A DNA stretch of 64,000 bases from Deltaproteobacteria bacterium (lineage in GTDB: Bacteria > Desulfobacterota > Desulfobulbia > Desulfobulbales > SURF-16), in NCBI GenBank assembly GCA_016219175.1, contig JACRCD010000032.1, positions 1,963-65,962 of the forward strand, in the 5' to 3' direction. The first letter of the stretch is position 1. Each line of letters opens with the position of its first letter. Positions 40,121-64,000 of this stretch are shown one piece after another. Position numbers and translations under genes: made by a program. The notes under the pieces are model-generated. The model was not told the origin of the DNA, made no database searches, and saw nothing but the letters and a program-made list of their open reading frames with translations.

Positions 40121-40205
40121 TTTTGACTTTGGTTCCGTCGTTTCGGTCGTTGTGGCTTTATCGTTTCGACCGCAATCATGTTATTTAAACAATAATTATG
40201 ATATT

Positions 40206-40358: not shown

Positions 40359-40370
40359 TATTGTAACCAG

Positions 40371-40780: not shown

Positions 40781-40788
40781 AAAACTAG
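40444..40788 (+). CDS. Small GIY-YIG (URI-domain, COG2827-type) nuclease-superfamily protein
   Basis: 114 aa: YFVYLITNWNHKVMYVGVTSNLIRRIYEHK...KLVYFEETSDVAAAIAREKEIKRWRREKK. This gives GIY (YLIT) / YVG motifs, then R, E and the helical tail. Confidence 0.8.
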   Translation: MPLTKQYFVYLITNWNHKVMYVGVTSNLIRRIYEHKNKLFDGFTKKYKVDKLVYFEETSDVAAAIAREKEIKRWRREKKNNLVVKMNPDWQDLSATWSGGSAGKISPCGRNDKN

Positions 40789-40990
40789 TAGTTCGTTTCA
40801 TATAAATATTTACATTTTCCTATTCGGTTGAGTCTGCCAAAAGCGACTAGTGGAGCGGTTTTCACGGTTCGGCAAGCTCAGCATGGACGGTAAAGCTTTT
40901 AGCAAAACGGACCACTAGAACTTGGGCATTCATTTCGGCCATTACACGATTATTCTAACCATCTACGCCGTAATTACAACCATCAGCGCC

Positions 40991-41157
40991 GTCATTTCGA
41001 CCGCCTGCTCTGCCATTTCGACCATCGCCCACTTTGTCATTTCCGCCATCCGCGCCTCTGTCATTTCGACCGCCTACTCTGTCATTTCGACCGCAGGGAG
41101 AAATCTTTATAAAATATCGGCATAGTGATAGATTCCTCACCTGCGTTAGGAATGACA
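40991..41157 (+). repeat. Array of five gtcatttcgacc-type units (21-26 bp spacing) ending in an inner-hairpin copy
   Basis: Units start at about 40991, 41012, 41036, 41060 and 41081. The last continues as gtcatttcgaccgcagggagaaatc ... gattcctcacctgcgttaggaatgaca (to 41157). Confidence 0.75.
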
Positions 41158-41195
41158 ATTGCAGACTTTTGCTCAACAACCAATCTTGAACATTT

Positions 41196-41348
41196 GAGGC
41201 TCTTGCAAAATAAGCAAAAGAGCGCCTCCTGTCATTTCGACCAAAATCCTGTCATTTCGACCGAAGGGAGAAATCTAATAAAATCATGGCAATTAAAGAT
41301 TTCTCACTGCGTTCGGAATGACACGCAAGTTCATTTCGCAAGAGCCTC
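41196..41348 (+). repeat. Nested-palindrome repeat, copy D (full length)
   Basis: gaggctcttgcaaaataagcaaaagag ... gtcatttcgaccgaagggagaaatc ... gatttctcactgcgttcggaatgac ... ttcatttcgcaagagcctc. Confidence 0.85.
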
Positions 41349-41618
41349 ATTTTCAAAAGAATAAGCCGGGGGGGGTTGGTCGTATTTGAACTGCCCTGGT
41401 TTGTTTCAGCCAGCATAGTCTGAATTCCCTGTCCGGAACGCATGGGAAATTCCATGTGTGAAATTTCTCCCTGCTGTCCAGTGAAAGGTCTTCTTGTATT
41501 CTAACATTCTGATATTGTGTGTTATTGTTGCTGTTTGCTAAATGGAGAAGCGAGAGAAAAAACAAAGTTGATTGTCGTTGAGTGAGTGTGGCCCATTATT
41601 TGCTAAGTATTTTGAAAC

Positions 41619-45018: not shown

Positions 45019-45067
45019 TTTTTAGTAACCTGTTTTTATTACCCGAGATTTACTGATGAAGTGCTAA

Positions 45068-45097
45068 GGGGGAGGCTCAGGCCTCCCCCTTTTTTTT
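45068..45097 (+). terminator. Rho-independent terminator
   Basis: GGGGGAGGC-tcag-GCCTCCCCC followed by T8, 50 nt after the 43210..45018 stop. Confidence 0.9.
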
Positions 45098-45127
45098 CCT
45101 GGTTTTCTTAACTTTTTGTCTTTCCCT

Positions 45128-45781
45128 ATGCGTTACACACATCTCATATCATTTCTGATTTTCACTGTTTTTCTGGCAGGGGGTGTTTACCCCTCTCTGG
45201 CCGGGCCGTATGTTCCCAGCCGCAATCTTGAAATAGAGACAGAGTTTTTGCAGGATTTACCGACCCGCAAAGGTGAGGCCGCGCCTACGAAAATCAGCTG
45301 GCTTGTCTCCCCCGCGGCTGCTGATGAACAGAGCGTCTCTCTGCAATTTTTTTTAAACCGTCAGCTTTCCGTCCCAGTGACAGCTGTGACGATTTTATTC
45401 GCGGGAGGTGTTACCAGGAAGGAACAAAGCGGTCAGACCACTGACGCCCCTGTTCATCTTCTTTTGAACTCCGGTTCCCCGGTGCCGGCCGATATACTGC
45501 CAATTATGCAGACGGAACGGGAAAAGACCTACCAGGTAGAGGAGAAGGCCGGCGGACGTAATTTTCTGCATACCTATCGCGTGGTGGAGACAGAGGTTTC
45601 CGCTCCAGAGGCCGTAAAAAAAGGGTGGCTGCGCAAGATTCCCCCGGCGGACGAGCGTTTGCAGTCTGTTACGGTTTACGATGACCGTAATCAACTGGTG
45701 GCTTTGCAGGTCTGGCCTGTCGGCGGCGAGTGGTGGCTTTATGAGGAAACACCCTACCGCCGTTCCTGGCTTGTCCAATAA
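45128..45781 (+). CDS. Secreted hypothetical protein
   Basis: ATG 45128, signal-like MRYTHLISFLIFTVFLAGGVYPSLAG. No recognisable motifs. Confidence 0.5.
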   Translation: MRYTHLISFLIFTVFLAGGVYPSLAGPYVPSRNLEIETEFLQDLPTRKGEAAPTKISWLVSPAAADEQSVSLQFFLNRQLSVPVTAVTILFAGGVTRKEQSGQTTDAPVHLLLNSGSPVPADILPIMQTEREKTYQVEEKAGGRNFLHTYRVVETEVSAPEAVKKGWLRKIPPADERLQSVTVYDDRNQLVALQVWPVGGEWWLYEETPYRRSWLVQ

Positions 45782-45807
45782 CTTTTTATCAGCAATCGAT
45801 TTTAATC

Positions 45808-48681: not shown

Positions 48682-49107
48682 TTATTTGGCCGGGGCAAAG
48701 GGATGTTCTCCCTCCTTCATTTGAATATACCACTTGCCTTTTTCCTTGACCCAGTATTGCATGGTCGGCGAGTCCTTGAAGACAAAGCCCATCATCAGCA
48801 CATCATATTTCACCATCACCTCCGCTTCCGTGCCGGAAGGCAGAATTTTGACCTGATCAATTGTCGAAGTGATAAAACTTATGGAATGTTTTCTGCGAAT
48901 GAAGTCATCCCTGCTTATCTGGGCTCGATACTTGGCATCATAGAGATCGTACACCTTGCCCCAGTCATCCTCGGTTTTGGCTTGGCTGAGTTCCGTCACC
49001 CTTGCCCTGAGCGCCTCTTCGGGATTCCCGGCAGCAAGCTGCAGGGTTGCGCAACCTGGTAATAAGGTAATGATGAGTATGGCGAAATACCTGGCACAGA
49101 AATTCAC
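48682..49107 (-). CDS. Small lipoprotein, unknown function
   Basis: Lipobox ITLLPGC, 141 aa. Overlaps the stop of the upstream gene (49104). Confidence 0.55.
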   Translation of the reverse strand: MNFCARYFAILIITLLPGCATLQLAAGNPEEALRARVTELSQAKTEDDWGKVYDLYDAKYRAQISRDDFIRRKHSISFITSTIDQVKILPSGTEAEVMVKYDVLMMGFVFKDSPTMQYWVKEKGKWYIQMKEGEHPFAPAK

Positions 49108-50333
49108 TTGAGATCCCCTTCCGTTGCCGGGGCATCAGCCGGTTTTTCGCTGCCATCGGCCGGTTGCTCACTTGCTGATGTGTCGTCCGTCTTCGTCGTC
49201 TGGTCCTTTTTATGGATAACGGTGATTTTTGCCGGGATCTCCTGGCCATTGTATTTCAATTTGGCTTTGATTTCTTCCCCTTCCGGTTCCCCGCTCTGTT
49301 TTATGAGATCCTGGCGTTGCTCCTTGATCTTCTGGTTGAACTCCTCAACAGAGTTGTAGACCGGCACCGTGGCTTTGACCGCGCTCGCTTCCTGCTTTTT
49401 TTGGGCCCGGATCGCCTGCATGTTTTCACGGTTTGAATCGGCGATCATCTGATCGACCATGACGTTATGCTGGTCAGCCTTGTCAAGGGCCACGGGATCA
49501 TTCTGCCTGATGACCAGCTTGCCGTCCTCTTTTGTAACGTTGACGGACAGGAAAAATTGTCCCTTGACTCCGGTGGGAACAATAACCTTATCCTGCTCCA
49601 GAGGGGCTTCGTTGATACTCTGATCGCTTGTTGTCACGGCAAGGTTGATGCCCGGCACCCCGTTAACCAGGGCCGCGGTTTCTTCCATGTCGAATTGCGA
49701 CAGGAGAACAATAATATCGGATTTTTCCTTCAGCTGGGGAACAAGCTCCTTGAGGGCGTCCTGGGCGGAAATGATGGTAAATCCTTTTACCTTTTCCGGG
49801 TCCACATAGAAATCAAATGAATTCTCCGGGAGCACGCCGACTATAGCGGCCCTGAAGCCGCCTATTTCCTTGATCACATAGGGTTTGAGCCATGTCTGCG
49901 GTGTTTCGCTTTTAATATTAGATGAAATAAAAGAAAAAGAGACCTTCTGGCTGGCATCGGCGAGATACTGGGCGCCGAAGTAGAATTCGCGTTGCCCGAG
50001 GTTCAGGGCGTCGAGCCCGAGAAAGTCGTAGATCTCAAAAGCCTGCCGGGCTCGAAGTTCCTGGTCCTGGCGGGCCGGGACGGCAAAAAGCCCGCCGCTG
50101 TCAACCATGAGAACGTTCTTGTTCGTTTCCTTTATATCCTCAAGCATTTTCGCCCGGCGCGAAAAACCGCCGGCATGGACGCCTCCGCACATCTGGGTGG
50201 GCATGAGCTTGCCGTTGATATTGCCTGTGTATATGATGGTGAGAGCCTTGTTTTCATCAGCCGGAGCGCTCGCAGCAAACAGGGCGACAAAAAAAAGAAC
50301 GAAAACGGTTACTTTGCGGATCATAAGCGTCAT
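49104..50333 (-). CDS. Secreted 5'-nucleotidase/UshA-like metallophosphoesterase-fold protein with degenerate metal motifs and a Lys/Glu-rich tail
   Basis: Signal peptide. LTIIYTGNINGKL, VLMVDSGGLF and LGQREFYFG occupy the positions of the D-x-H, GD-x-x and GNHE motifs. C-terminal low-complexity region. Confidence 0.4.
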   Translation of the reverse strand: MTLMIRKVTVFVLFFVALFAASAPADENKALTIIYTGNINGKLMPTQMCGGVHAGGFSRRAKMLEDIKETNKNVLMVDSGGLFAVPARQDQELRARQAFEIYDFLGLDALNLGQREFYFGAQYLADASQKVSFSFISSNIKSETPQTWLKPYVIKEIGGFRAAIVGVLPENSFDFYVDPEKVKGFTIISAQDALKELVPQLKEKSDIIVLLSQFDMEETAALVNGVPGINLAVTTSDQSINEAPLEQDKVIVPTGVKGQFFLSVNVTKEDGKLVIRQNDPVALDKADQHNVMVDQMIADSNRENMQAIRAQKKQEASAVKATVPVYNSVEEFNQKIKEQRQDLIKQSGEPEGEEIKAKLKYNGQEIPAKITVIHKKDQTTKTDDTSASEQPADGSEKPADAPATEGDLK

Positions 50334-50431: not shown

Positions 50432-50458
50432 TTGCATGTTGCCTGTATTGAGTATAGT
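50432..50458 (+). promoter_or_regulatory. Possible sigma70-type promoter for the oligosaccharyltransferase operon
   Basis: TTGCAT (50432-50437), 15-nt spacer, TATAGT (50453-50458). The spacer is shorter than optimal. Confidence 0.3.
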
Positions 50459-50523
50459 CTCTATTATTTTGTTCTGGTTTTTGCAAAAAAGAATGGCTGA
50501 AGATTGTTGGAAAGGAGGTATCC

Positions 50524-52671
50524 ATGCCTGATGCAGCATGGTTTCGTGAAAATAGAAAATCACTGGAAATAGCAGGGCTCCTGCTTGTTATGGCGCTGGG
50601 GTTATTTTTGCGTCTTGAAGATCTCGCCGCCTGGAAGTCCGAACCGGAAAGGGCTTTTTATCAAGGGGAACCGCTGGTAACGACCCACGATGGTTTTTTC
50701 TATCTCTCCCTGGCCCGGGATCTGGTTGATGGAACCTATGATCCGGTTGATAAAAAACGGGCGGTGCCCGATACCGCTGTGCGTCCCCCCATCCCGCCTT
50801 TGCTTTCGGTCATGACCGCGGGTTTGCACAAAGTATTTAATTTTTCCTATAACTGGATCGGGGTTCTTCTTCCTCCTGTCCTGGGCATCCTGCTGGCACT
50901 GCCGATGTATCTGCTGGGGCGATTTTACGGCGGACCTGTCATGGGGATGACTGCCGCCGCTACCGCGCTTCTTTCCGAATATTACATGGGAAGAAGCACC
51001 CTCGGCTGGTATGATACGGATAGCCTCAATGTCACCTTTCCCATGGCCTGCGCCTATTGTTTTCTCTCTTTCGGAGTTGTGGAAGGCATGAAGCGCTATT
51101 GGTATCTGCTGGCCGGGCTGGTCAATTTTGTTTTTTTCATCTGGTGGTGGGACTCGGCTCCGGAAATTGTCGCCGGCATCTGTCTTGGCCCCCTGTTTCT
51201 GGCCCTGGTTTTTTTCTACCGGCCATCCCGTCGTGAGGGGCTGTATTTTTTCGCCGTTCTTTCGGTTTGTATTCTTGCGGTCCTGTATCGGCTGGGCTTT
51301 GATTATCCCATCAGGATTTTTAATCAGGTTATGGGGCAGTTCGGCTATATCAGCTTTCAGGAGGCCGGGGCTTTTCCTAATATGAGCATTACGGTCTCAG
51401 AGCAGGAACGGACCGGGCTGATGGAGATTGTCAGAGGCACCACGACGAATCTGGTCTCGTTTATTTTGGCCTGGGTTGGGTTTTTCTGGTTGGCTATCCG
51501 CAAACCCAAGCACAGTATTTTCCTCCTCATCCCCTTCGTGTTAAGCCTGCTTTCCATTTTTTACGCCAGGCGCTTTCTTATTTTCATGGCCCCGGTCAAT
51601 GCCCTTGGACTCGGTTTCGTCGTGGCTCAAGTCTGGGGCACGCGCCAGAAGTGGAAGATCTGCGGATACATCGCCCCGGCCCTTTTTCTTTTTTTCACGG
51701 TGCCGCCTTTTGTCACGGCCATGTCCAAGGTGAACTGGCCGAAATTTCATCCCCTGACGGTTACCGGCATGGATCTGGCCGGGAAGCAAACCCCTGATGA
51801 CGCCGTGGTCTGGGCCTGGTGGGATATGGGCTATCCGCTGCGCTACTGGTCCCAGCGGGGCACGATTTCCGACGGCACCTACCATGGCGGGGAGTTGGCT
51901 GTTTACAACGCCATCCCGTTCGCCACTAATGATTTCCGGCTAGCCGCCAACTTCATGCAGTTTTACGTGGCCCGCGGCAGTAACGGTATAAGCCAGTTGA
52001 TCACGGCTTTAGGGGGCAATAAACCGAGAAGCCTGACTTTTATCAAGGAGGTTCTGGCCGCGGGCCCGGAAAAAGGCCGAGAAATAATTACAGCCGAGTC
52101 CTTGCTTGCCCAAGGCGAATGGCGGAATACCGATGACTGGCTCAGGTTTTTCTTCCCTCCCGACCCCAAGCCGCTCTATCTTTTTCTTGAGTCCCGTCTC
52201 ATCGTTACGGATTATTGGTGGTACTGGCTCGGCACCTGGGATATCGCCAAACAGGAGGGCTTGCATCGTTTCTATAAGCCCTACACCAATGTCGAGATTA
52301 CTGACAAATACGCCCGCAACGCTAAAGGGTTGGATGTTGATCTGGTTGAGGGATTCGCCACCATTGAGGGCAAGAAATTTCAGCTCAAGGACGTCATATT
52401 GCGGGGCCAGGGCGATCAGTTTAAAAGACATAATTTTCATGACAAGGGGATCAATTTTGAAGTTTTTCTCCCGGTAAATTATGCGGTCCTGTCTGATCTT
52501 GATATTGCCGAATCGGTGTTTAATAAACTTTATCTGCGCCATATCGGGCCCAAGGAAGAGTATTTCCGTCCGGTTAACCTGTTGACCCCCGCTTATCAGC
52601 TCTGGGTGGTCAAGGGCGATCAGTTGCCCAAAAATAATGATCAGCAAAGGAAAGGTAAGGATGTTTCATGA
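50524..52671 (+). CDS. STT3-family oligosaccharyltransferase (PglB/AglB-like)
   Basis: 715 aa with many N-terminal TM helices. THDGFFYLSLARDL lies in the first loop, the WWDMGY motif (WWDYG type) is followed by TISDGTYHGG, and a soluble C-terminal domain follows. Confidence 0.8.
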   Translation: MPDAAWFRENRKSLEIAGLLLVMALGLFLRLEDLAAWKSEPERAFYQGEPLVTTHDGFFYLSLARDLVDGTYDPVDKKRAVPDTAVRPPIPPLLSVMTAGLHKVFNFSYNWIGVLLPPVLGILLALPMYLLGRFYGGPVMGMTAAATALLSEYYMGRSTLGWYDTDSLNVTFPMACAYCFLSFGVVEGMKRYWYLLAGLVNFVFFIWWWDSAPEIVAGICLGPLFLALVFFYRPSRREGLYFFAVLSVCILAVLYRLGFDYPIRIFNQVMGQFGYISFQEAGAFPNMSITVSEQERTGLMEIVRGTTTNLVSFILAWVGFFWLAIRKPKHSIFLLIPFVLSLLSIFYARRFLIFMAPVNALGLGFVVAQVWGTRQKWKICGYIAPALFLFFTVPPFVTAMSKVNWPKFHPLTVTGMDLAGKQTPDDAVVWAWWDMGYPLRYWSQRGTISDGTYHGGELAVYNAIPFATNDFRLAANFMQFYVARGSNGISQLITALGGNKPRSLTFIKEVLAAGPEKGREIITAESLLAQGEWRNTDDWLRFFFPPDPKPLYLFLESRLIVTDYWWYWLGTWDIAKQEGLHRFYKPYTNVEITDKYARNAKGLDVDLVEGFATIEGKKFQLKDVILRGQGDQFKRHNFHDKGINFEVFLPVNYAVLSDLDIAESVFNKLYLRHIGPKEEYFRPVNLLTPAYQLWVVKGDQLPKNNDQQRKGKDVS

Positions 52672-53608
52672 TAATCAGCTGGCCGTGGTTGTTCCGGCCT
52701 ACAACGAAGAGCATCTTATCGGCACGGTGATTGAAACGCTTCCCGGTTATGTCGACCATATCGTTATCGTTGACGATTGCAGCAAGGATAACACCGTTGC
52801 AGTGGTAAAAAAATATTGCGAGAAAGATGAAAGGGTTGTCTTGCTCGAACATGAAAAAAATCAGGGGGTTGGCGGCGCCATTGTCACCGGCTATAAATGG
52901 GCGATGAACAGGGATATCGAAGTCACGGTGGTCATGGCCGGGGATGCCCAGATGGATCCGGCCGATCTGCCGAATATCGTCCGACCCGTGTCCGAGGGCA
53001 AGGCTGACTACACGAAGGGAAACCGACTTTTCCATGGCGAGGCCTGGAAGGTGATGCCCAAATACCGCTATCTCGGCAATTCCTTTCTGTCGCTGTTTAC
53101 CAAGATTGCCTCGGGCTACTGGCATATTGCCGACTCCCAGACCGGCTACACGGCGATTTCGCTTGAGGCTCTCTATCTGCTTGACCTGGACAGTATCTAT
53201 AAACGGTACGGCATGCCCAATGATATCCTCATCCGCCTCAATACCCTGAATATGCGGGTAAAGGATGTGCCGATCCGGCCGGTCTATAATGTCGGGGAGA
53301 AATCCGGCATCCGGTTGCGCAGGGTGCTGTTTACCATATCCTGGCTGCTGATAAAGGGTTTCTTCCGGCGTATGTGGTTTAAATACGTCATTGAAGATTT
53401 TCATCCCCTGGTCTTTTTTTACATGATGGGGATTCTCCTGGCCCCTTTCGGCTTTTTTTTCGGGCTTTACCTTGTCTTTTACCGTCTGCTCCTGGGCGGT
53501 GTCGAGACGACCAGTGCGCTGTTTGCCGCTTTTCTCTATATCTCCGGTTTGCAGTCTCTCTTTTTCGCCATGTGGTTTGACATGGACTACAATAAAAATT
53601 TACGGTGA
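52661..53608 (+). CDS. Family-2 glycosyltransferase with C-terminal TM helices (polyprenyl-phosphate hexose synthase-like)
   Basis: LAVVVPAYNEEHLI, VIVDDCSKDNT and DAQMDP, plus two C-terminal TM helices. The start overlaps the oligosaccharyltransferase 3' end. Confidence 0.75.
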   Translation: MFHDNQLAVVVPAYNEEHLIGTVIETLPGYVDHIVIVDDCSKDNTVAVVKKYCEKDERVVLLEHEKNQGVGGAIVTGYKWAMNRDIEVTVVMAGDAQMDPADLPNIVRPVSEGKADYTKGNRLFHGEAWKVMPKYRYLGNSFLSLFTKIASGYWHIADSQTGYTAISLEALYLLDLDSIYKRYGMPNDILIRLNTLNMRVKDVPIRPVYNVGEKSGIRLRRVLFTISWLLIKGFFRRMWFKYVIEDFHPLVFFYMMGILLAPFGFFFGLYLVFYRLLLGGVETTSALFAAFLYISGLQSLFFAMWFDMDYNKNLR

Positions 53609-54789
53609 CGGATGTGCGGGTTCTGCATCTCGCCACTTCATTCCCTTTTGATGCCGGAAGTTTTGCCGGCTCCTTTATTCATCATCTGGTCAGAAATGAG
53701 GTTGCGCAGGGGATATCCTGCACGGTACTGACTCCGGCCGCCCTAAGGCCAACCGAATGGCCTGCTGAATATCCGGTCCGCCGTTTCCGCTACGCCCCGT
53801 GGTCCATGCAGAAAATTGCCCAGCAGCCTGGAGGGATCCCCGCGGCTTTGGCTGATAACCCTTTTTTTTATGGTTTGCTTTTGCCCTTTCTGGCGTCCAT
53901 GGCAACAAATATTATCCGTCAATCCAGCCAATATGATGTTATCCATGCCCACTGGGCAGTCTGCGGGGCCATGGCCGTTCTGACCCAGCCGTTTCATAAA
54001 CTGCCGGTCATCACCACCCTGCGCGGCTCTGATTTTCATTTTTCGCAAGAAAAAGCACCGCACCGTCTGCTTCTGGCTCAGGCTGTCAATGGATCCGCGG
54101 TCACGACGGCGGTGAGTGAAAATATGGCCGACACTCTGCGCGGCGCGTTTAACCGGCAGGAGATCCGTTTTGTCCCCAACGGGGTTGATGATGTTTTCTT
54201 CCGTCTTCCCGTGGCTGAGCCGCCGAGCCCGGATTGTCCCTGGAAGCTCTTGTATGTGGGCAGCCTTATTCCCATGAAGGGCGTGGATATTCTCCTGCGC
54301 GCCCTTGGCCGGTTATCCCATCATACCTGGCAGTTAACCGTTGCCGGCGAGGGGAAGGAAGGGGATTCCCTTCGCGCTCTTGCTAAAGGTCTGGGTGTTG
54401 CTGAAAGAGTCAGTTTCCTTGGCGGAGTTGCCCCCAAGGAGATCGTCAATCTTATGGCTGAGCATCATCTTTTTGTTTTGCCAAGTCTGTGGGAAGGACG
54501 GCCGAATGTTGTCCTTGAGGCCATGGCCGCGGGACGGGGGATTGTCGTCGCTGCCAATGCCGGCTGCCGTGAACTCATTGAAGACGGCAGGAACGGCTGG
54601 CTTTTTGAGCCCGGGAAGGAGGAACCCTTGGCTGTTATACTGAACTCGGTATTTGCCGGTGAAAGGGACATTGCCGCGGCCGGGCGGGCCGCGCGCAGGT
54701 GGGTGACTGATCAAGGTCTGACCTGGGAAAAGGCGGCGGCAAGGTATGCGGAACTGTATGATTATGCAAGACGTGAAGGTCACCGGTAG
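53605..54789 (+). CDS. Family-4 glycosyltransferase
   Basis: GTG start overlapping the previous stop. EGRPNVVLEAMAAGRGIVV...RNGWLFEP. Confidence 0.75.
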   Translation: MTDVRVLHLATSFPFDAGSFAGSFIHHLVRNEVAQGISCTVLTPAALRPTEWPAEYPVRRFRYAPWSMQKIAQQPGGIPAALADNPFFYGLLLPFLASMATNIIRQSSQYDVIHAHWAVCGAMAVLTQPFHKLPVITTLRGSDFHFSQEKAPHRLLLAQAVNGSAVTTAVSENMADTLRGAFNRQEIRFVPNGVDDVFFRLPVAEPPSPDCPWKLLYVGSLIPMKGVDILLRALGRLSHHTWQLTVAGEGKEGDSLRALAKGLGVAERVSFLGGVAPKEIVNLMAEHHLFVLPSLWEGRPNVVLEAMAAGRGIVVAANAGCRELIEDGRNGWLFEPGKEEPLAVILNSVFAGERDIAAAGRAARRWVTDQGLTWEKAAARYAELYDYARREGHR

Positions 54790-54794
54790 CTGAG

Positions 54795-56669
54795 ATGTGC
54801 GGTATCTGCGGAGTGATCGATTTTGACGGCAGGCAAGGCAAGGAGCTGTCAGCCGTCATCCGGGACATGATAGGCCGGCTGAAACACCGGGGCCCGGATG
54901 CCGACGGCTACTGGCTTGACCGGGGCATTGCCCTGGGGCATGCCCGGCTGTCCATCATTGACCTGGCCGGCAGCGTGCAGCCCATGCTGGACGGGCTGGA
55001 GCGATATGTCATCACATTCAACGGCGAGATTTACAACTATGTTGAATTGCGCCGGGATCTTGAGGATCAGGGGGTTACCTTTAAAACCAACGGGGATACG
55101 GAGGTGCTTCTTGCCGCCTATATCGCCCATGGTCCTGAATGTCTGCAGCGCTTGAACGGCATGTTCGCCTTTGCGGTCTGGGATCGCAAGGAGCAGGTTC
55201 TCTTTGCCGCCCGGGACCGGATGGGGGTGAAGCCTTTTTATTACGGCCAGGGGGAGGGCGGGTTATTTGCCTTTGCCTCGGAGCTGCAGGCCTTGAAAGG
55301 CCTGCCTCTTGATTTCTCGATTAATACCCTGTCGTTGCGGCAATACCTCCGCCACGGATTTATCTGGTCGCCCGAAACAATTTTCCAGGGCGTTAAAGAA
55401 CTGCGGCCCGCCCATTATCTCCTGTGGAACCGGCAAGGTTTTGCCCTTCATCAATACTGGACTCTGCCGGCGACCCGGCCCGACTGGCTGAAAAAGCCGG
55501 AGCAGGAGGTGGCGGCGGAACTGCGGGATCTTATCGGTTCATCCGTCAATCTCCGGTTGCGCAGCGATGTCCCTGTCGGGGCATTTCTGTCGGGAGGGCT
55601 TGACTCCAGTATTGTCGTCTCGGCCATGAGTGCGCGGAGCAAAACAGACATTCATACTTTTTCCATTGGTTTTGCCCAAGGGACATTTGATGAAAGCCCC
55701 TTTGCCCGGGAGGTTGCCGAATATCTCCGGACCGAGCACCATGAAGGACATGAGGATCTGCGACCGGAAGAACTCATTTTTGATCTGGTAAAACATTACG
55801 GCCAACCCTATGGGGACTCATCCGCTATTCCCACCTGGTATCTGTGCCGTGAAACACGAAAACATGTCGTCGTTGCCCTGTCGGGAGACGGGGCGGATGA
55901 ACTTTTTTGCGGCTACCGCAGGTATTACGCCCGGAGGCTGCTTGCCTACTATCAGAGGATCCCGTTGCTGCTACGCGACAAGGTCTGGACATTGCTGGAA
56001 AAGCTGCCTGAGGGAACAGGCTATTACGACAGCAGCATCATCAAGAAGCTGCGGCTTTTTGCGGCACTTGAGCAAAGGGTGCGCAAGGATCCAGCGGATA
56101 TCTACCCCGCTTATTTTACCGCGGATGACTTGCCCGGGATTCTGAATGAAAAAACAGGACAACAGCCAGGCGGAATCGGGCAACTGACGCTGCCCAACGA
56201 CGCGGAAGGCGTGGTGGAGATGATGATGCATTCCGACCTGCTGCATTATCTGCCGGACGATATCCTGGCCAAGGTGGACAGGGCCAGTATGGCCCATGGG
56301 CTTGAGGTGCGGTCGCCGTTTATGGATTATCGTCTTGTCGAGTTTGCCTGCCGCCTGCCCCTTGCTTTCAAATTGCAGGGGAGCACCTCAAAGTATATCC
56401 TGAGGAAAGCCTTTGCCGGTTCTTTGCCGCCGAGGTCTCTTTCCCGGGCAAAACATGGTTTTGCCGTGCCGGTGGGCGACTGGTTTCAGGGAACGTTGCG
56501 GGAGCTTTTCCGTGATCAGGTGCTATCCGGAAATACGGATCAATTCGTTAATAGAAACCTTGCCGAGCGTCTGCTGGCCGAGCATCAGTCAGGAAAAACA
56601 GACCACGGCCATCGTCTCTGGCTCCTGCTTTTTCTGCATGTCTGGCAACAGTGGTGGCGTGAGCAATAA
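54795..56669 (+). CDS. Asparagine synthase (glutamine-hydrolysing)-family amidotransferase
   Basis: N-terminal MCGICGV nucleophile and the SGGLDSS PP-loop. 624 aa, embedded in a glycan locus. Confidence 0.85.
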   Translation: MCGICGVIDFDGRQGKELSAVIRDMIGRLKHRGPDADGYWLDRGIALGHARLSIIDLAGSVQPMLDGLERYVITFNGEIYNYVELRRDLEDQGVTFKTNGDTEVLLAAYIAHGPECLQRLNGMFAFAVWDRKEQVLFAARDRMGVKPFYYGQGEGGLFAFASELQALKGLPLDFSINTLSLRQYLRHGFIWSPETIFQGVKELRPAHYLLWNRQGFALHQYWTLPATRPDWLKKPEQEVAAELRDLIGSSVNLRLRSDVPVGAFLSGGLDSSIVVSAMSARSKTDIHTFSIGFAQGTFDESPFAREVAEYLRTEHHEGHEDLRPEELIFDLVKHYGQPYGDSSAIPTWYLCRETRKHVVVALSGDGADELFCGYRRYYARRLLAYYQRIPLLLRDKVWTLLEKLPEGTGYYDSSIIKKLRLFAALEQRVRKDPADIYPAYFTADDLPGILNEKTGQQPGGIGQLTLPNDAEGVVEMMMHSDLLHYLPDDILAKVDRASMAHGLEVRSPFMDYRLVEFACRLPLAFKLQGSTSKYILRKAFAGSLPPRSLSRAKHGFAVPVGDWFQGTLRELFRDQVLSGNTDQFVNRNLAERLLAEHQSGKTDHGHRLWLLLFLHVWQQWWREQ

Positions 56670-56673
56670 TAGC

Positions 56674-57789
56674 ATGCAGACGGAACGCGCCCCTTTAATT
56701 TTTCTCCTGCCGTCCCTGGCCGGGGGCGGGGCAGAGCGTGTCGCCGCAACGCTTGCCCCTCGCCTTGATCTGCATTTTGACCTGACCCTGGCCTTGCTGC
56801 AGAACAGATGTGATTTTCCCCTGCCCGGCTCTGTCAGAAAGACTTTTTTTTCCGGGCCCCTTCTTTCAGCACCTGCAAATCTTGTCCGTTTTCCGTATCA
56901 TGTTTTTTCCCTGGTTAAGCTGGTGCGGCGGAGCAGGGCACTGACCGTGCTGAGTTTCATGGAGCAGGCCAATATCATCAATGTCCTTGCCGCGCAAATG
57001 ACTGGGCACAGGGCTATCCTTTCGCAACGGACCAACCCCAAGGAGCAATACTTGGGCAAGGGGGTGCTCGGAGCTGCCATTGTGCGGAGCTGCGCCTCTC
57101 TTTACCCTCGCTGTCACCGCCTGATTGCCGTGTCCCATAGGGTCGGCGAGGTCGTAGTGGAGGATTATGGTTTGCGGCCGGAACAGGTTGCGGTTATTGC
57201 CAACCCGGTAGACATCGAGAAGATGCGGGCCATGGCCGGGGAGGAGCCGCCCCTGCGGCTTCCCGCAAGATTTTTGCTGCATGTGGGCCGGCTGGACATC
57301 GCGACCAAAAGGCAGGACTATCTGCTCTCGGCTTTTAAGGAAATGCTGCACGAAATAGCTGATTTGAGCCTTGTTTTTGTCGGCGTCGGTCCTGACAGGG
57401 AGTTTTTGCAAGCCAGGTGTTGTGAACTTGGCATAGCCCCCAAGGTTATTTTTGCCGGGTGGCAGGAGAACGTTGCCGGTTTCATGAGCCGGGCGCTGGC
57501 CACGGTCCTCTGCTCCCGTTATGAAGGGTGGCCCAATGTCCTGGTTGAGGCCATGAGTGTGGGTTGTCCGGTTGTGGCCACCGATTGCCCAACCGGACCA
57601 CGGGAGATTATCGGCAACAGCCGCTACGGCCTTTTGGTCGGCCAGGATGACCCGGCCGAGCTCGTGGCCGCTTGCCTCAGCCTGTTTCGGGAACCCACCA
57701 GGATGCATCTGGCCAGTCAGGCAGCTCTGCGGGCCCGGGATTATGCCCTTGACACGATTGTTGACCGGTATAGGCGTGTGCTGCAATAA
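56674..57789 (+). CDS. Family-4 glycosyltransferase
   Basis: MQTERAPLIFLLPSLAGGGAERV and YEGWPNVLVEAMSVGCPVVATD. Confidence 0.75.
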   Translation: MQTERAPLIFLLPSLAGGGAERVAATLAPRLDLHFDLTLALLQNRCDFPLPGSVRKTFFSGPLLSAPANLVRFPYHVFSLVKLVRRSRALTVLSFMEQANIINVLAAQMTGHRAILSQRTNPKEQYLGKGVLGAAIVRSCASLYPRCHRLIAVSHRVGEVVVEDYGLRPEQVAVIANPVDIEKMRAMAGEEPPLRLPARFLLHVGRLDIATKRQDYLLSAFKEMLHEIADLSLVFVGVGPDREFLQARCCELGIAPKVIFAGWQENVAGFMSRALATVLCSRYEGWPNVLVEAMSVGCPVVATDCPTGPREIIGNSRYGLLVGQDDPAELVAACLSLFREPTRMHLASQAALRARDYALDTIVDRYRRVLQ

Positions 57790-57870: not shown

Positions 57871-57941
57871 GTTCTGAAAATCAGTACAAAATACAAAAAA
57901 TGTGAATGCATATACTTCAGCGAACTGCGCCACCTATTTTC

Positions 57942-58487
57942 ATGACCTCCCTGTTTAATGGCCTCATAACGTCAAAGCTCAGGATACGTATCCTGATGCG
58001 GCTCTTTCTCAATCCCAGCCGCCAGGCCTATCTCCGTGAGCTGTCCAATGAGTTCGGCGTTTCTCCCAGTCAGGTCCGGGAAGAACTGCAGCAGTTGAAA
58101 GAGTCCGGGCTTCTCGCCGATCAGCGATATGGCCGGAAGATTCATTACCAGGCCAACACCCAGCATCCCCTTTTTCCGGAACTGCACTCCATGGTGAAAA
58201 AAGCCATGGGCATGGATCATATTTTTGATAGTATCATCAGCAGGCTGGGCAGCCTTGAAAAGGTCTATCTGCTTGACGAGTATGCGGAAGGAAAGGATGG
58301 CGGGCTGATTGATCTGCTTCTTGTCGGCGACATTGATCAGGCCAATCTGACCGATCTTGTCGCTAAGGCGGAACGGTATGTTGAGCGGAAAATAAGAACA
58401 ATCATTCTCGGCACGCATGAGTACGTAAAGATGTGGCCCACCTTTAAGAACCGGCCGCACCTTCTTATCTGGGAAAAGGGGCAATAA
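57942..58487 (+). CDS. Winged-helix (ArsR-like) transcriptional regulator with a nucleotidyltransferase-like C-domain (alternative start 57906)
   Basis: LRIRILMRLFLNPSRQAYLRELSNEFGVSPSQVREELQQLKESGLL. The C-terminus is GGLIDLLLVGDID. Confidence 0.55.
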   Translation: MTSLFNGLITSKLRIRILMRLFLNPSRQAYLRELSNEFGVSPSQVREELQQLKESGLLADQRYGRKIHYQANTQHPLFPELHSMVKKAMGMDHIFDSIISRLGSLEKVYLLDEYAEGKDGGLIDLLLVGDIDQANLTDLVAKAERYVERKIRTIILGTHEYVKMWPTFKNRPHLLIWEKGQ

Positions 58488-58488
58488 G

Positions 58489-58995
58489 ATGAAAAGGGAA
58501 TGGTTTGCCGTCAGGACAAAACCCCATAAAGAATTTGTCGCGCAGCAGAACTTTGTCCGGCAGAATTTTACTGTTTATCTGCCCCAGGTCATGAAAACCA
58601 GGAGTCATGCCCGGCGTGTTGAAAAGGTCTGCCGCCCTTTTTTCCCGGGCTATCTTTTTCTGCATCTCGCCCCGGCAGAGCGGGTGTGGCCGACCATCGC
58701 CTCGACCAGAGGCGTGCTTGCCCCTGTGCAGTTCGGCGGCTGTTTCCCTCCGGTGCCCGACGAAATTATCCTGTCATTGCAGGCGCAGGAGGATGAAAAA
58801 GGTTTCATGAACAGTACCTTGGCCAATGGTTGGATGACGCCGGGGCTTAAGGTCAGGGTCAAACATGGTAACCTTGACGATATTGAAGGCATTTTCCAGC
58901 AGGTCACCGGCGAGAACAGGGCCCTGGTGCTGGTGGAAATCCTGCGGCGGCAGGTGCCGATGGCTGTGCCGATTTCTTCTTTGATTGCTGCCTGA
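58489..58995 (+). CDS. RfaH/NusG-paralogue operon-specific transcription antiterminator
   Basis: 168 aa: WFAVRTKPHKEFVAQQNF...PFFPGYLFLHL...TRGV NGN domain, plus a KOW-like GLKVRVKHGNLDDIEGIF. Confidence 0.7.
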   Translation: MKREWFAVRTKPHKEFVAQQNFVRQNFTVYLPQVMKTRSHARRVEKVCRPFFPGYLFLHLAPAERVWPTIASTRGVLAPVQFGGCFPPVPDEIILSLQAQEDEKGFMNSTLANGWMTPGLKVRVKHGNLDDIEGIFQQVTGENRALVLVEILRRQVPMAVPISSLIAA

Positions 58996-60738: not shown

Positions 60739-60817
60739 TGTTTTTTTTGATATAGTTATCGGCTTGCTTGGATTATTGAAGCTTGTCTCAACCGACCTGC
60801 TGGAGAGTGAGAAAGGG

Positions 60818-61636
60818 ATGCAAAAATCGGATATGGAAATTATTGCGGATTGTTCGAGCAATCATATGGGCGATATGAATATTGCCGGACGTATGATAGA
60901 ACTTGCTGCCGAAGCAGGTATTGATACGATAAAATTTCAGTCATGGCAAGCCGACAGGTTGCGCGGGGATTTCCCTGATTACGATGCGACCTTTGCCCGG
61001 CATCGCAAGGCCCAACTTTCCGATAAAGACCATGTAATGCTTATCGAGAAATGTAATGAGTGCGGTATCAAATTTTTGACGACGTGCTTTGATATTAATC
61101 GGGTCGATTTTTTAGCTTCACTGGGCTTGTCGGCTATAAAGGTGGCAAGCCCTGACTGCGCTTCATTTTCCATGCTTGATACGTTGATGTCAAGGTTTCC
61201 CCGGCTGATTATTTCCACCGGCATGTCCACTGATGAGGAAATAAGCAAAATGGTGGAACATGTCAGAGGCCATGACGTGATCATTCTCCATTGCGTGTCA
61301 ATCTATCCCACCCCTTTGGAGAAAGTGAATTTGGAAAGAATGCAATGGCTGAAATCCTTAGGGGTGCGGGTTGGTTTTTCCGACCACAGTCTGGGCACGG
61401 AAGCGGGCAAGCTTGCTCTTGCCATGGGCGCGGAAATTCTTGAAAAACATTTTACCCTGTCCCGCTATCTGCCCGGAAAAGATCAGGCCATGTCCACCGA
61501 AATCAGTGAATTTAAGGAACTGGTGGATTGGAAAAATTTGATCGCCTTGATGCGGGGATCCACTCATCCGGGTTTAAGTGATGATGAGAAAAAGCTGCGG
61601 GAAATCTATATAGGGAAATGGGGAGATAACAGATGA
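60818..61636 (+). CDS. neuB: NeuB-family nonulosonic-acid (sialic/legionaminic/pseudaminic-type) synthase, short form without the SAF domain
   Basis: IIADCSSNHMGDMNIAGRMIELAAEAGIDTIKFQSW, KVASPD, VGFSDHS. About 272 aa. Confidence 0.6.
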   Translation: MQKSDMEIIADCSSNHMGDMNIAGRMIELAAEAGIDTIKFQSWQADRLRGDFPDYDATFARHRKAQLSDKDHVMLIEKCNECGIKFLTTCFDINRVDFLASLGLSAIKVASPDCASFSMLDTLMSRFPRLIISTGMSTDEEISKMVEHVRGHDVIILHCVSIYPTPLEKVNLERMQWLKSLGVRVGFSDHSLGTEAGKLALAMGAEILEKHFTLSRYLPGKDQAMSTEISEFKELVDWKNLIALMRGSTHPGLSDDEKKLREIYIGKWGDNR

Positions 61637-62793
61637 GTTCTCTGACACCTCGTAAAGTATGCATTGTAGTTTTTAGTAGGGCAAACTACGCCCGTATTAA
61701 AACGGTATTGCGATCTGTTCAAAAACATTCTGATCTTGAACTCCTTCTTGTCGTTGGGGCTTCAGCTCTCCTTTGGCGATATGGTAATATTCTGGAGACA
61801 GTGAAAAAAGATGGATTTGAGATAGCCCGTACCGTCCATTCCGTGGTTGATGGTGGCACACCTGCGACTATGGCTAAGTCCACCGGTTTGAGCATTATTG
61901 AGCTTGCAACAACTTTTGAAAATTTGAAACCCGATATAGTATTAACAGTCGCTGACCGTTATGAGACAATGGCGACAGCCATAACAGCTTCTTATATGAA
62001 TATAACACTTGCTCATACGCAGGGAGGTGAAATAACAGGTTCTATCGATGAGTCAGTTCGGCATTCAATAACCAAACTGTCACATATTCATTTCCCAGCT
62101 ACGGAATTGGCAAAAAATAGACTTGTAAAAATGGGTGAAGACCCGGACACTATTTTTCTTACAGGATGCCCATCAATGGACATTCTAGTTGAAGAAAATT
62201 TAAGATTAAAGGCTGATTTTTTAGATAAATATTCGGGTTCGCAGAAAAAAATTGATCTTGAAAAACCTTATCTTCTTGTCCTGCAGCATCCTGTAACAAC
62301 AGAATATGGTCAGGGGCTTAAGCAAATTAATCAGACTTTACAGGCTGTAAAAAATATCGATATGCAGACGATTTGGCTTTGGCCTAATGCTGACGCGGGC
62401 ACTGATGAAATTGCAAAGGGGTTACGGGTCTTTAAAGACGAAGACCGTGATGGAAAAATTTTATTTTTTCTTAATTTTACGCCTGAAGATTATGCAAAAA
62501 TACTTGCAAATGCAGCCTGTATTATCGGAAATTCCAGTTCGGGGATCCGAGAGGGTTCTTTTTTAGGTGTGCCCGCTGTTAATATCGGAACAAGACAAAA
62601 TAGCAGGGAAAGAGGGAAAAATACCATTGATGTTAAACATGATATTAAAGAAATTGAAGATGCCATTCGCAAACAACTAAAGCATGGCCCATATGATCCA
62701 GAATACCTCTATGGAAGCGGAAATGCTGGTGAGCGGATTGCCGAGGTGCTTGCATCTATAGATTGTAAAGCGCAGAAAGTACTCTATTATTAA
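61633..62793 (+). CDS. neuC: UDP-N-acetylglucosamine 2-epimerase (hydrolysing), NeuC-like
   Basis: KVCIVVFSRANYARIK, VADRYETMATAI, LAHTQGGEITGSIDESVRHSITKLSHIHF. Confidence 0.7.
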   Translation: MSSLTPRKVCIVVFSRANYARIKTVLRSVQKHSDLELLLVVGASALLWRYGNILETVKKDGFEIARTVHSVVDGGTPATMAKSTGLSIIELATTFENLKPDIVLTVADRYETMATAITASYMNITLAHTQGGEITGSIDESVRHSITKLSHIHFPATELAKNRLVKMGEDPDTIFLTGCPSMDILVEENLRLKADFLDKYSGSQKKIDLEKPYLLVLQHPVTTEYGQGLKQINQTLQAVKNIDMQTIWLWPNADAGTDEIAKGLRVFKDEDRDGKILFFLNFTPEDYAKILANAACIIGNSSSGIREGSFLGVPAVNIGTRQNSRERGKNTIDVKHDIKEIEDAIRKQLKHGPYDPEYLYGSGNAGERIAEVLASIDCKAQKVLYY

Positions 62794-62884
62794 GTAGACA
62801 ATTTTTTCATTGAACTTATTAGAAGTTAAAAAAACGTCAAATTAATATCATACGACATGATGGCATGATAATTGAGGATGCAGA

Positions 62885-63898
62885 ATGAGCTTTGAAAAAG
62901 ATACTTTGCGTGATGTTTATTTCGTGCAACAGGAGAAAGAGCTTTTAGAGTTGGTTGATCCAGATACAGGTATGTTGAGTAGTCGCTATTCCCAGTTGAT
63001 TCCATGCCCAATTTGTGAGTCAAACAGACATTCAGTTGTTTTTATAAAGCGTGGATATACCTTTGTTCGTTGCGAGGAATGCGAGCTTGTTTTTGTAAAT
63101 CCTCAGGTATTACCTGATATTGTTGAGGGTGCTTATAGCGGGCAGAAAGGGATACCAGCCTCAACCTCGACAGATTTGTGGATGGAAATTTTGTTAAATG
63201 AAAAAGAAGCGGCATGGAGAAGTGAATATTTTTCATCCATCCTGAGTTTCATTGAAAAGTTTCAGCCACAAAAAAGTCATCTACTGGATATAGGTTGTGG
63301 GGTGGGACATTTTTTGAGTATAGCCCGCCAAAATGGATGGCAGACAACAGGACTTGAATTGAGCGAAAAGGGCTCTGCGCATTGTAAAAAAAATGGTCTT
63401 ACTGTTTTTCAGAAAACAATTGAGGAGGTTGCCTTAAGTGCTGACACGTTTGATGTGGTGACGCTTCTTGGGGTTCTTGAGCATATGGTTGACCCCAAAA
63501 GAACTTTGGCTAATGCTGTTCGTGTGATGAAGCCGGGAGGGGTCATCAGTGTTGTTGTTCCCAATGTTTATAGTCTGTTGGCCATGATATTGCGAGAAAA
63601 AGCCGTAACTTTTGACGGAAGGGAGCACATGATTTTTTTTTCAGCGGATACGCTACAAAAGATTTTTCAAAAGGTTGGACTTGAGGTGCTCCATTGCGAC
63701 ACTGTGTTGACGGGTATTCATAACATTATGAAATATATGCAGTTCTTTGACCCGTACGGAGAGAATCAAGGGTGTCATTTTCTGCCTGAGGGTATCCGTC
63801 ATTTCTGCCAACCTCAGGGACAGCTATTGCTTGAAGATTGGATTTTGAAGAACAATCTAGGACTTCGATTGCGAATTTTTGGCAGACGGATGCGATAG
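62885..63898 (+). CDS. Class I SAM-dependent methyltransferase with an N-terminal zinc ribbon
   Basis: CPICES...CEECELVF Cys4 motif, LLDIGCGVGHFL motif I and LLGVLEHMVDP. Confidence 0.75.
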   Translation: MSFEKDTLRDVYFVQQEKELLELVDPDTGMLSSRYSQLIPCPICESNRHSVVFIKRGYTFVRCEECELVFVNPQVLPDIVEGAYSGQKGIPASTSTDLWMEILLNEKEAAWRSEYFSSILSFIEKFQPQKSHLLDIGCGVGHFLSIARQNGWQTTGLELSEKGSAHCKKNGLTVFQKTIEEVALSADTFDVVTLLGVLEHMVDPKRTLANAVRVMKPGGVISVVVPNVYSLLAMILREKAVTFDGREHMIFFSADTLQKIFQKVGLEVLHCDTVLTGIHNIMKYMQFFDPYGENQGCHFLPEGIRHFCQPQGQLLLEDWILKNNLGLRLRIFGRRMR

Positions 63899-63900
63899 AT

Positions 63901-64000
63901 ATGCCGAAACTGGCAATTTTAACCTACCATTATATTCGCACATTAGAGAATATCCTGCAAAGAAGGATTTTGGGGCCCCTTCGTGAATCTTTCGAGGATC
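63901..64000 (+). CDS. 5' end of a CDS leaving the window (possibly polysaccharide deacetylase-like)
   Basis: ATG 63901 sits 3 nt after the previous stop, and the frame stays open to the window end. MPKLAILTYHYIR resembles deacetylase N-termini, but only 33 codons are visible. Confidence 0.3.
   Translation, partial: MPKLAILTYHYIRTLENILQRRILGPLRESFED

Follow-up and report, generated by a model that had tools for sequence, protein, structure and literature searches.

To our knowledge, studies of N-linked protein glycosylation in bacteria come almost entirely from Campylobacterota and from a few Desulfovibrio enzymes expressed in Escherichia coli. We analysed a 64 kb stretch of DNA (the window) from contig JACRCD010000032.1, which adds only 1.5 kb past the window end (locus L084) and comes from a Desulfobulbia-like genome of the Thermodesulfobacteriota. 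In the window, a 715-aa protein predicted to be a single-subunit oligosaccharyltransferase (OST) is encoded at the head of an operon, and the next gene encodes a family 2 glycosyltransferase (GT2) of the polyprenyl-phosphate class. This gene partnership recurs across a large clade of related OSTs and is unlike that of the described systems which the locus most resembles.

The PglB proteins of Campylobacter lari and Campylobacter jejuni (PDB entries 3rce, 5ogl and 6gxc) are single-subunit enzymes that share their fold and approximate length with the window OST. D56 of C. lari PglB, its DxD pair, the glutamate of external loop 5 (EL5), R375, WWDxG and the D-G-x-x-H that follows WWDxG all have counterparts in the window protein. 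Sequence identity between the Campylobacter enzymes and the window OST is however 18–25%, and the score of the latter against the Campylobacter PglB equivalog model NF050801 is 124.9 bits, where the cut-off is 1300. Pfam PF18527, found in the listed Campylobacterota PglBs, has no match in the window OST. The MxxI motif of C. lari PglB is LxxT in the window protein, and the position of the −2 reader R331 is taken by a glycine and is unconserved in the clade. Furthermore, pglC, pglK and the genes for N,N'-diacetylbacillosamine that belong to the Campylobacter pgl locus are absent at the window locus, where the polyprenyl-phosphate GT2 adjoins the OST instead. Judged from its sequence, the window OST is not an equivalog of Campylobacter PglB.

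The PglB enzymes of Desulfovibrio gigas, D. alaskensis, D. vulgaris and D. marinus are active in E. coli and have a relaxed sequon (PMC4894442, PMC12229607). Their signatures are WWDWG, DGGR and an 'NL' that replaces MI or DK, and they are 15–20% identical to C. jejuni PglB (PMC12229607). Like the window OST they are single-subunit bacterial N-OSTs of the phylum Desulfobacterota/Thermodesulfobacteriota, broadly taken, and in both the −2 reader environment is not strictly conserved. The window OST differs in having WWDMG, DGTYH and LxxT at the signature positions. The combination of WWDWG with DGGR was found in none of 209 clade members, and a tblastn search of a plasmid collection gave no match. 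Comparison by the published motif signatures, the only comparison made, suggests that the clade is distinct from the characterised Desulfovibrio enzymes.

The euryarchaeal AglB pathways, which are begun by AglJ in Haloferax volcanii and by AglK in Methanococcus voltae, use a dolichyl monophosphate carrier. They share with the window an OST paired with a GT2 resembling dolichyl-phosphate mannose synthase (DPMS), additional cytoplasmic glycosyltransferases and the lack of a phosphoglycosyltransferase, and the sugar-nucleotide genes of the window resemble an archaeal UDP-GlcNAc 3-dehydrogenase. The window OST is nevertheless far closer to PglB than to AglB (TM-score 0.76 versus ~0.55; 373 versus 39 bits), the window GT2 falls under the AglJ equivalog cut-off, and the lipid would be undecaprenyl rather than dolichyl, on a presumed monophosphate. 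Archaea build their N-glycans on dolichyl monophosphate and bacteria build theirs on undecaprenyl pyrophosphate (Und-PP) (PMC4476749), and the bacterial OSTs branch inside the euryarchaeal AglB proteins (PMC4973528).

In the three-component systems (GtrA/GtrB/GtrC, ArnC/ArnT, GacI/GacL and Ppm1/Pmt), as in the window, the gene for a GT2 with a C-terminal transmembrane hairpin stands beside a gene for a GT-C enzyme. The GT-C partner in the window belongs instead to the STT3/PglB family and has an intact sequon-reading motif. No GtrA-type small flippase was found beside the window operon, where the small open reading frames (ORFs) were inspected and no small multi-transmembrane protein is annotated. 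Because soluble family 4 glycosyltransferases (GT4s) are encoded in the same operon, the lipid-linked sugar is probably elongated before transfer, unlike in the three-component systems.

The oligosaccharyltransferase and its family

An earlier, sequence-only reading of the window had called the 715-aa protein the catalytic subunit of an N-OST because of three motifs. It had proposed a PF02516 search and alignment of the catalytic acidic residues as checks, and had named clustering with ArnT- or PMT-type transferases as an outcome that would speak against the assignment. The Pfam model PF02516 (STT3) matched at 71.5 bits (cut-off 24.5) and PF21436 (STT3/PglB/AglB core) at 38.9 bits (cut-off 23). 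When the protein was compared with all PDB sequences, Campylobacter PglB chains were the sole matches (E = 2e-25 for C. lari PglB). All three motifs were present and aligned with those of C. lari PglB: TTHDGFFY...ARDL with TTNDGYAF...ARDM, which places D56 on D56; WWDMGY (residues 432–437) with WWDYGY; and DGTYHGG (450–456) with DGGKHLG. The proposed equivalence of this last segment with DGGKH held for its position and for D, G and H, but the second G and the K of DGGK are not kept. The clade consensus at this site is DGxxH.

The alignment also identified catalytic or binding positions that the earlier reading had not listed. These are R157; D164-x-D166, equivalent to D154/D156 of C. lari PglB (YDTD); E293 in TVSEQ, equivalent to the EL5 glutamate E319; and R350, equivalent to R375. 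At the DK/MI motif, M569 and I572 of C. lari PglB correspond to L559 and T562 (RLIVTDYWW), which gives an MI-like LxxTxxxW.

An AlphaFold2 model built with 29 homologues (pLDDT 91.9, pTM 0.89) has a GT-C fold, with multiple transmembrane helices and a periplasmic mixed alpha/beta domain, that superposes on the solved OSTs. Foldseek comparison of the model with the PDB gave TM-scores of 0.74–0.77 to C. lari PglB (E = 2e-28, ~740 columns; 0.76 to 6gxc), 0.47–0.59 to the eukaryotic STT3 proteins and Archaeoglobus fulgidus AglB, ~0.4 to DPY19, 0.32 to ArnT and 0.19 to PMT. A profile of the OST family scored 373 bits over residues 7–713 of C. lari PglB, compared with 39 bits for A. fulgidus AglB and 30–34 bits for STT3, although the profile contains two Campylobacterota sequences, which raises the PglB score. 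Since PglB is the closest by fold and by profile, the protein groups with the PglB lineage of N-OSTs, and clustering with ArnT or PMT is excluded. Taken together, the alignments and the model identify the 715-aa protein as a predicted single-subunit N-OST of the bacterial PglB lineage with a complete set of catalytic residues.

A word-indexed protein search with the OST found 82 relatives, of which the named ones were nearly all Thermodesulfobacteriota or 'Deltaproteobacteria' metagenome-assembled genomes (MAGs). The nearest was 63% identical, and the Campylobacterota PglBs were 24–25% identical. A profile search of the same database recovered the same 84 proteins as the single-sequence search, with no named Desulfovibrio, Geobacter or archaeal sequences. 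Relatives were found in 148 species in a scan of one genome per species, and an exhaustive HMMER search gave 341 clusters (50% identity) at E ≤ 1e-30, the best 150 of which were all at ≤ 1e-84. By sequence relationship the OST locus is not unique and belongs to a large clade, mostly of Thermodesulfobacteriota.

The residues D56, R157, D164, D166, E293 and R350 are each retained in 205–208 of 209 full-length homologues: the D56 column is Asp in 205, and D164, D166 and E293 are kept in 207, 208 and 208, respectively. The WWD triad is canonical in only ~72% of the family, and the complete catalytic set occurs in 140 of the 209, the window OST included. In the MI columns, L (111) and M (44) occur at the first position, and T (91), S (19) and I (17) at the second. 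R331 of C. lari PglB reads the acidic −2 residue of the D/E-X-N-X-S/T sequon. Its column falls on G305 in the window OST, with R304 adjacent and a shift of the alignment by one residue possible, and across the clade it holds differing residues (K 27, A 25, L 25, R 15, others). As there is no conserved −2 reader, members of the clade may accept plain N-X-S/T sequons.

The ~28% of the extended family with a degenerate WWD motif (SWGHG, WWNxG, TFWHG or WWExG; for example P0062, P0063, P0072, P0080, P0081 and P0220) retain D56, D164, D166, E293 and R350. These members may share the OST fold and differ in how they recognise acceptors.

The adjoining glycosyltransferase and the operon across the clade

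The operon genes are listed in Table 1. The junctions in the order OST, GT2, GT4, AsnB, GT4 measure −11, +5, +5 and −32 nt, and this packing makes them one tightly coupled operon: the OST, preceded by a strong Shine-Dalgarno sequence (AAGGAGG, 6 nt upstream), heads a translationally coupled unit. The sequence-only reading had described the gene order correctly. The overlap it reported between the OST and a GT2 with C-terminal transmembrane helices is 11 nt with the GT2 start at 52661 or 35 nt with the start at 52637, and the GT4, the AsnB-family amidotransferase and the second GT4 that it placed downstream were all borne out by their Pfam domains.

The same reading had assigned to the GT2 the architecture of a polyprenyl-phosphate sugar synthase, and the modelled fold agrees with it. 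The protein matches Pfam PF00535, with D38/D39 and D95 invariant, and has transmembrane helices at 263–281 and ~290–312 (numbered from the start at 52637). Its AlphaFold2 model (pLDDT 84) contains long helices at 219–245, 250–277 and 283–311. The top 17 PDB matches of this model in Foldseek were all ArnC, GtrB or DPMS, aligned over the full length including the transmembrane hairpin (~320 columns). By sequence, the best PDB matches were the dolichyl-phosphate mannose synthase of Pyrococcus furiosus (5mlz) and then ArnC. The best NCBIfam match was AglJ (TIGR04182) at 86.8 bits over the full length, below its cut-off of 325. Six alternative OST-adjacent GT2 proteins likewise had AglJ as their best match, at 121–148 bits over the full length and again below the equivalog cut-off. 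In Haloferax, AglJ attaches the initial N-glycan sugar to dolichyl phosphate. On these sequence and model comparisons the GT2 is assigned to the polyprenyl-phosphate glycosyltransferase class.

The first GT4 (GT4a) matches Pfam Glycos_transf_1 and Glyco_transf_4 and has no transmembrane helices; its PDB matches include a lipopolysaccharide (LPS) 1,6-galactosyltransferase and PglA. The best NCBIfam match of the second (GT4b) was PglJ (145 bits, below cut-off), followed by PglH, and its best PDB match was C. jejuni PglH/WlaC (6eji, full length, E = 3e-18). A TTG start for GT4b at 56413 is an alternative but probably makes the protein too long. The AsnB homologue matches PF13537 and PF00733, passes TIGR01536 (476 bits, cut-off 267) and scores 550 bits against the XrtA/PEP-CTERM amidotransferase model TIGR03108, below the cut-off of 817. 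Its catalytic motifs are intact (the N-terminal nucleophile in MCGICG and a PP-loop, SGGLDS, at 266), and it is predicted to be a competent amidotransferase.

ORFs within 6 kb of the OST were clustered all against all for ~80 loci. The sole recurrent functional neighbour was a GT2 of 282–325 aa with two C-terminal transmembrane helices. It stands on the same strand beside the OST, either directly downstream or ending ~200 nt upstream, in 41 of the ~65 loci with enough flanking sequence. The cultured Dissulfuribacter thermophilus has the 315-aa GT2 in an STT3-GT2-GT4 operon, and the OST locus of Dissulfurirhabdus likewise has an adjacent two-transmembrane GT2. The remaining recurrent neighbours were housekeeping genes (GlnE, ThrRS, PheRS, an HD-domain protein and MnmE), and thus in many genomes the system consists of just the OST and the GT2. 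On the OST tree the association spans most subclades, and closely related OSTs hold different types of GT2 (315 aa or 282 aa) in the same slot. This indicates that the slot persists while its occupant changes. The 315-aa type is 72–87% identical across loci whose OSTs are only 43–63% identical. GT4a accompanies the OST-GT2 pair in 19 loci and AsnB does so in 7 related loci, and the full gene arrangement of the window recurs in OST relatives of 59–63% identity. The comparison identifies the OST and the polyprenyl-phosphate GT2 as the conserved core of the predicted system, and the GT4-AsnB-GT4 genes as an accessory module of some lineages.

Neither a flippase nor an initiating phosphoglycosyltransferase had been seen in the window by the sequence-only reading, and this held: no such domain occurs in the 42 window proteins, and none was found by six-frame motif scan of the window. 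PF02397 and PF00953 (Bac_transf and WecA-type) had no match in these 42 proteins, and the same held for six pre-annotated OST loci. When 91 loci (1.39 Mb) were scanned in six frames for the PglC/WbaP signature (DE[LF]PQ / VGPRP), a single true gene came up, in L057, which validates the pattern. Of ~80 related loci, one has a gene of this type at most 10 kb from the OST. The absence of a phosphoglycosyltransferase near the OST is clade-wide in these data and probably reflects the pathway rather than the edge of the window.

Possible routes to the glycan donor

The reading that we favour, although it is unproven and in our estimate a little short of an even chance as a whole pathway, is that the GT2 charges undecaprenyl monophosphate (Und-P) and so makes or primes the OST donor, as in euryarchaea. 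The two-transmembrane GT2 would move a sugar from its nucleotide sugar to Und-P at the cytoplasmic face; the dehydrogenase/acetyltransferase fusion encoded nearby would supply this sugar, which is probably a derivative of N-acetylhexosamine (HexNAc). The two soluble GT4s would lengthen the lipid-linked sugar to a short oligosaccharide, the AsnB homologue would amidate a carboxyl group of the glycan (a uronic acid), and a flippase encoded outside the window would carry the glycolipid to the periplasmic face. The OST would then transfer the glycan to asparagines that lie in N-X-S/T sequons of envelope or secreted proteins, with D56, D164, D166 and E293 as its metal site and the WWD motif to recognise the +2 Ser/Thr. 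Where a lineage has the OST and the GT2 alone, a single sugar linked to Und-P may serve as the donor. We infer the lipid carrier and its number of phosphates, the sugars, the target of amidation and the flippase, as well as the sequon rule and the proteins that act as acceptors. We extend the scheme to the clade more tentatively still. There, N-glycosylation would start without a phosphoglycosyltransferase, with an AglJ-like GT2 charging Und-P and a PglB-fold OST transferring the sugar or short glycan to Asn. If this were true, it would constitute a euryarchaeal-type alternate pathway in bacteria, and the two-gene lineages would represent minimal single-sugar N-glycosylation.

Several observations weigh against a monophosphate-linked donor. 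As far as we know, all bacterial N-OSTs characterised so far use Und-PP-linked donors. C. lari PglB, the closest solved relative of the window OST, is such an enzyme, no sequence feature tested separates mono- from pyrophosphate donors, and the GT4s resemble PglH, PglJ and PglA, which act on Und-PP acceptors. Some OST subclades have no adjacent GT2. The initiating enzyme could sit elsewhere in the genome, of which 64 kb is visible, and the six-frame scan of the 1.39 Mb for WecA-type motifs, which found none, used a pattern without a positive control. In addition, the 315-aa GT2 family is very large and extends to Nitrospirota and other Desulfobacterota, far more widely than the OST clade. It stands alone in a Nitrospirota MAG, and in Desulforhopalus sp. 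52FAK (L088, 4717–16951) the same 315-aa GT2 (66% identical) follows cdaA-ybbR-glmM. Its neighbours there encode an LPG_synthase_TM protein, a hexapeptide protein, DegT, an epimerase, a GT4, a second hexapeptide protein, a GFO/MocA protein and an ArnT-like GT-C of the PMT_2 family, so that L088 appears to be a candidate OST-free system for modification of the envelope by way of an Und-P-aminosugar. Because the 315-aa GT2 is found alone or with an ArnT-like GT-C, its gene contexts identify it as a generic polyprenyl-phosphate sugar synthase that different GT-C enzymes draw on, rather than as an OST-specific initiator.

Much of this evidence speaks for a route in which the PglB-type OST uses an Und-PP-oligosaccharide begun by a distant enzyme of the WecA or WbaP/PglC type, perhaps shared with LPS or exopolysaccharide synthesis. 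The GT4s would then extend the Und-PP glycan, as the likeness of GT4b to PglH/PglJ and the PglA match of GT4a would suit, and the Und-P-sugar made by the GT2 would serve a side-branch decoration or another glycoconjugate. A gene for a Wzx-type flippase, typical of Und-PP pathways, also lies a few genes downstream in a close relative (L001). We consider this route a serious contender but a doubtful one. It leaves unexplained a polyprenyl-phosphate GT2 beside the OST in at least 41 loci, often with no further glycosylation gene amid the housekeeping genes and with one GT2 type exchanged for another in the same slot. No second GT-C enzyme is encoded nearby to consume the Und-P-sugar, and the scarcity of initiating enzymes within 10 kb of the OST also counts against it. 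An arrangement like that of ArnC and ArnT, in which the GT2 makes an Und-P-monosaccharide and the STT3-fold GT-C transfers it to lipid A or LPS core, a polysaccharide or another envelope molecule instead of Asn, appears improbable. In its favour, such systems are marked by the pairing of a two-transmembrane GT2 with a GT-C, the GT2 of the window has an ArnT-like partner in Desulforhopalus, genes for LPS heptosyltransferases (GT9) are repeatedly found near the OST (13 loci), and the WWD motif is degenerate in ~28% of the extended family. The window OST, on the other hand, retains the full peptide-reading apparatus of an N-OST (WWDMG, the EL5 glutamate and the MI-type helix), its fold is much closer to PglB than to ArnT or PMT, and we know of no STT3-family member that acts on a non-protein acceptor. 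That the OST is an inactive relic or a chance resemblance we regard as a negligible prospect, since the ORF is intact, has a strong ribosome binding site and shows translational coupling to the GT2 gene, and its Pfam and PDB matches lie far beyond chance. The near-invariance of its catalytic residues, all of them kept, effectively refutes a relic.

Neighbouring genes and meaning of the locus

Table 1. Coordinates of the operon and of the adjoining features in the window
Feature	Position	Strand	Basis
Promoter-like site TTGCCT-17-TATTAT	50439..50467	+	Consensus scan; 190-nt divergent intergenic region before the OST
Predicted single-subunit N-oligosaccharyltransferase, PglB-like, GT-C, STT3 family, 715 aa	50524..52671	+	Pfam, PDB sequence, AlphaFold2 fold
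Predicted polyprenyl-phosphate glycosyltransferase GT2, 315 aa, two C-terminal transmembrane helices, AglJ/DPMS/ArnC/GtrB class	52661..53608	+	
GT4 glycosyltransferase a, 391 aa, soluble GT-B	53614..54789	+	Pfam
Glutamine-dependent AsnB-family amidotransferase, 624 aa	54795..56669	+	Pfam, NCBIfam, motifs
GT4 glycosyltransferase b, 383 aa	56638..57789	+	Pfam; start as given by the gene caller in L084
Helix-turn-helix (HTH) regulator (193 aa) and RfaH/UpxY-like NusG paralogue (168 aa)	57906..58995	+	Pfam HTH_5, NusG
GFO/IDH/MocA dehydrogenase fused to left-handed beta-helix acetyltransferase, 558 aa	59062..60738	+	Pfam domains
NeuB-family synthase, NeuC-like UDP-GlcNAc 2-epimerase and methyltransferase; runs off the window	60764..63898	+	PF03102, PF02350, PF13489

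In the 190-nt region upstream of the OST, the consensus scan found 24 promoter-like sites where 14.5 ± 3.6 were expected, which is not a significant enrichment. The promoter in Table 1 is therefore a tentative assignment, as it comes from the consensus scan only. Apart from this one plausible −35/−10 site, the promoter and terminator scan was uninformative, and Rfam and tRNA scans of the window gave no matches.

Downstream of the operon, the HTH regulator and the NusG paralogue probably regulate the sugar-nucleotide cluster that follows. The NusG paralogue scores 123 bits against RfaH (TIGR01955), below the cut-off of 144.5. Both genes also follow the operon in the 63% relative (L087), and the HTH gene does so in L001. 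Among NCBIfam models, the 558-aa fusion best matches the archaeal UDP-GlcNAc 3-dehydrogenase, at 149 bits and thus under the cut-off, and the NeuD/PglB-acetyltransferase family, and it likely makes a 3-keto or 3-acetamido UDP-HexNAc derivative. Such a fusion directly follows the OST-GT2 pair in L085, and the two activities are encoded by split genes adjoining the same GT2 in L088. A GFO/MocA dehydrogenase and an acetyltransferase accompany the GT2 in three contexts that are independent of one another (the window together with L001; L085; L088), and this company hints that the sugar handled by the GT2 is a 3-modified HexNAc.

The nonulosonic-acid cluster proposed by the earlier reading was supported in part: NeuB and a NeuC-like 2-epimerase are present, but no CMP-synthetase is encoded inside the window. 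Past the window, the contig carries a polysaccharide deacetylase gene and then a truncated gene. GC content falls to 0.40 over the terminal methyltransferase (window 62001–64000; L084 11017–12551) from ~0.54 for the whole window, and this drop suggests that the low-GC end of the sugar cluster is a recently acquired module.

Upstream, three secreted proteins of 602, 221 and 814 aa are encoded at 43210–48252. They are essentially without family, apart from one short TGase_elicitor match in the 814-aa protein; those of 602 and 814 aa share recurring beta-rich 'W-W/F-x-G-x-x-x-x-N' modules, and in L087 all three are conserved ahead of the OST operon. The 602-aa protein (43210–45018), described earlier as sequon-rich, does contain 12 N-X-S/T sequons where 7.2 ± 2.4 are expected from its composition, which is rich in Thr, Ser and Asn (P ~0.04), but the excess is marginal. 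Only two of the 12 sequons have D/E at −2, and of the nine that can be aligned with a 71%-identical orthologue only four are conserved there. A role for it as a dedicated acceptor is unsupported by these counts. Divergent from the OST, on the minus strand at 48682–50333, lie the genes for a UshA-like protein with a signal peptide and for a 141-aa lipoprotein. The former scores 154 bits, below cut-off, against the NCBIfam 'UshA-like (seleno)protein' model, has a Cys in an MCGG context and is possibly a periplasmic UDP-sugar hydrolase or nucleotidase. The latter was considered as a GtrA flippase and rejected, since it is a lipoprotein with a single signal/lipobox segment. A UshA-like gene adjoins the OST in L006, and a similar two-gene pair without Pfam matches occurs in L087.

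Further upstream, a complete-looking type II secretion/pseudopilus operon (the GspD secretin, M, L/PilN-like, K, minor pseudopilins, F and E) occupies 28987–39638 on the minus strand and could export the neighbouring secreted proteins. At 39670–41350, a 114-aa GIY-YIG-like ORF (40444–40788) is flanked by repeated sequence, namely a 155-nt repeat in three copies and a 53-nt unit in seven. The repeat core, CTGTCATTTCGACCGnAGGGAGAAATC, is hairpin-capable, and the region is otherwise ORF-poor, with GC content down to 0.44. A 342-aa protein with an IS200-like Y1 transposase domain and the C-terminal HTH of DnaA (21944–22972) ends an rml/GT2/GT4 sugar cluster (17063–21798). Membrane proteins with a DedA/VTT domain, a family implicated in Und-P recycling, are encoded at 15928–16641 in the window and at 1877–2527 in L085, 7 kb from the OST.

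The locus opens a much larger family of predicted bacterial N-OSTs, of at least 341 clusters at 50% identity and from 148 reference species, nearly all of them uncultured, with the PglB fold and an intact active site. Acceptance of plain N-X-S/T sequons, which these OSTs may show, is a property sought for glyco-engineering. In its gene partnership the clade is unlike the known systems, with an archaeal-style polyprenyl-phosphate sugar synthase in place of an initiating phosphoglycosyltransferase. What is new at the level of the system is the clade-wide pairing with an AglJ-like polyprenyl-phosphate glycosyltransferase, the lack of an initiating phosphoglycosyltransferase nearby, and the variant MI and −2-reader positions. 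The glycan of this clade may be built differently from those of all known bacterial systems. If its donor is monophosphate-linked, this would overturn the textbook rule that N-glycosylation proceeds from Und-PP in bacteria and from dolichyl phosphate in euryarchaea. The cultured carriers Dissulfuribacter thermophilus and Dissulfurirhabdus thermomarina put the question of the donor within direct experimental reach.

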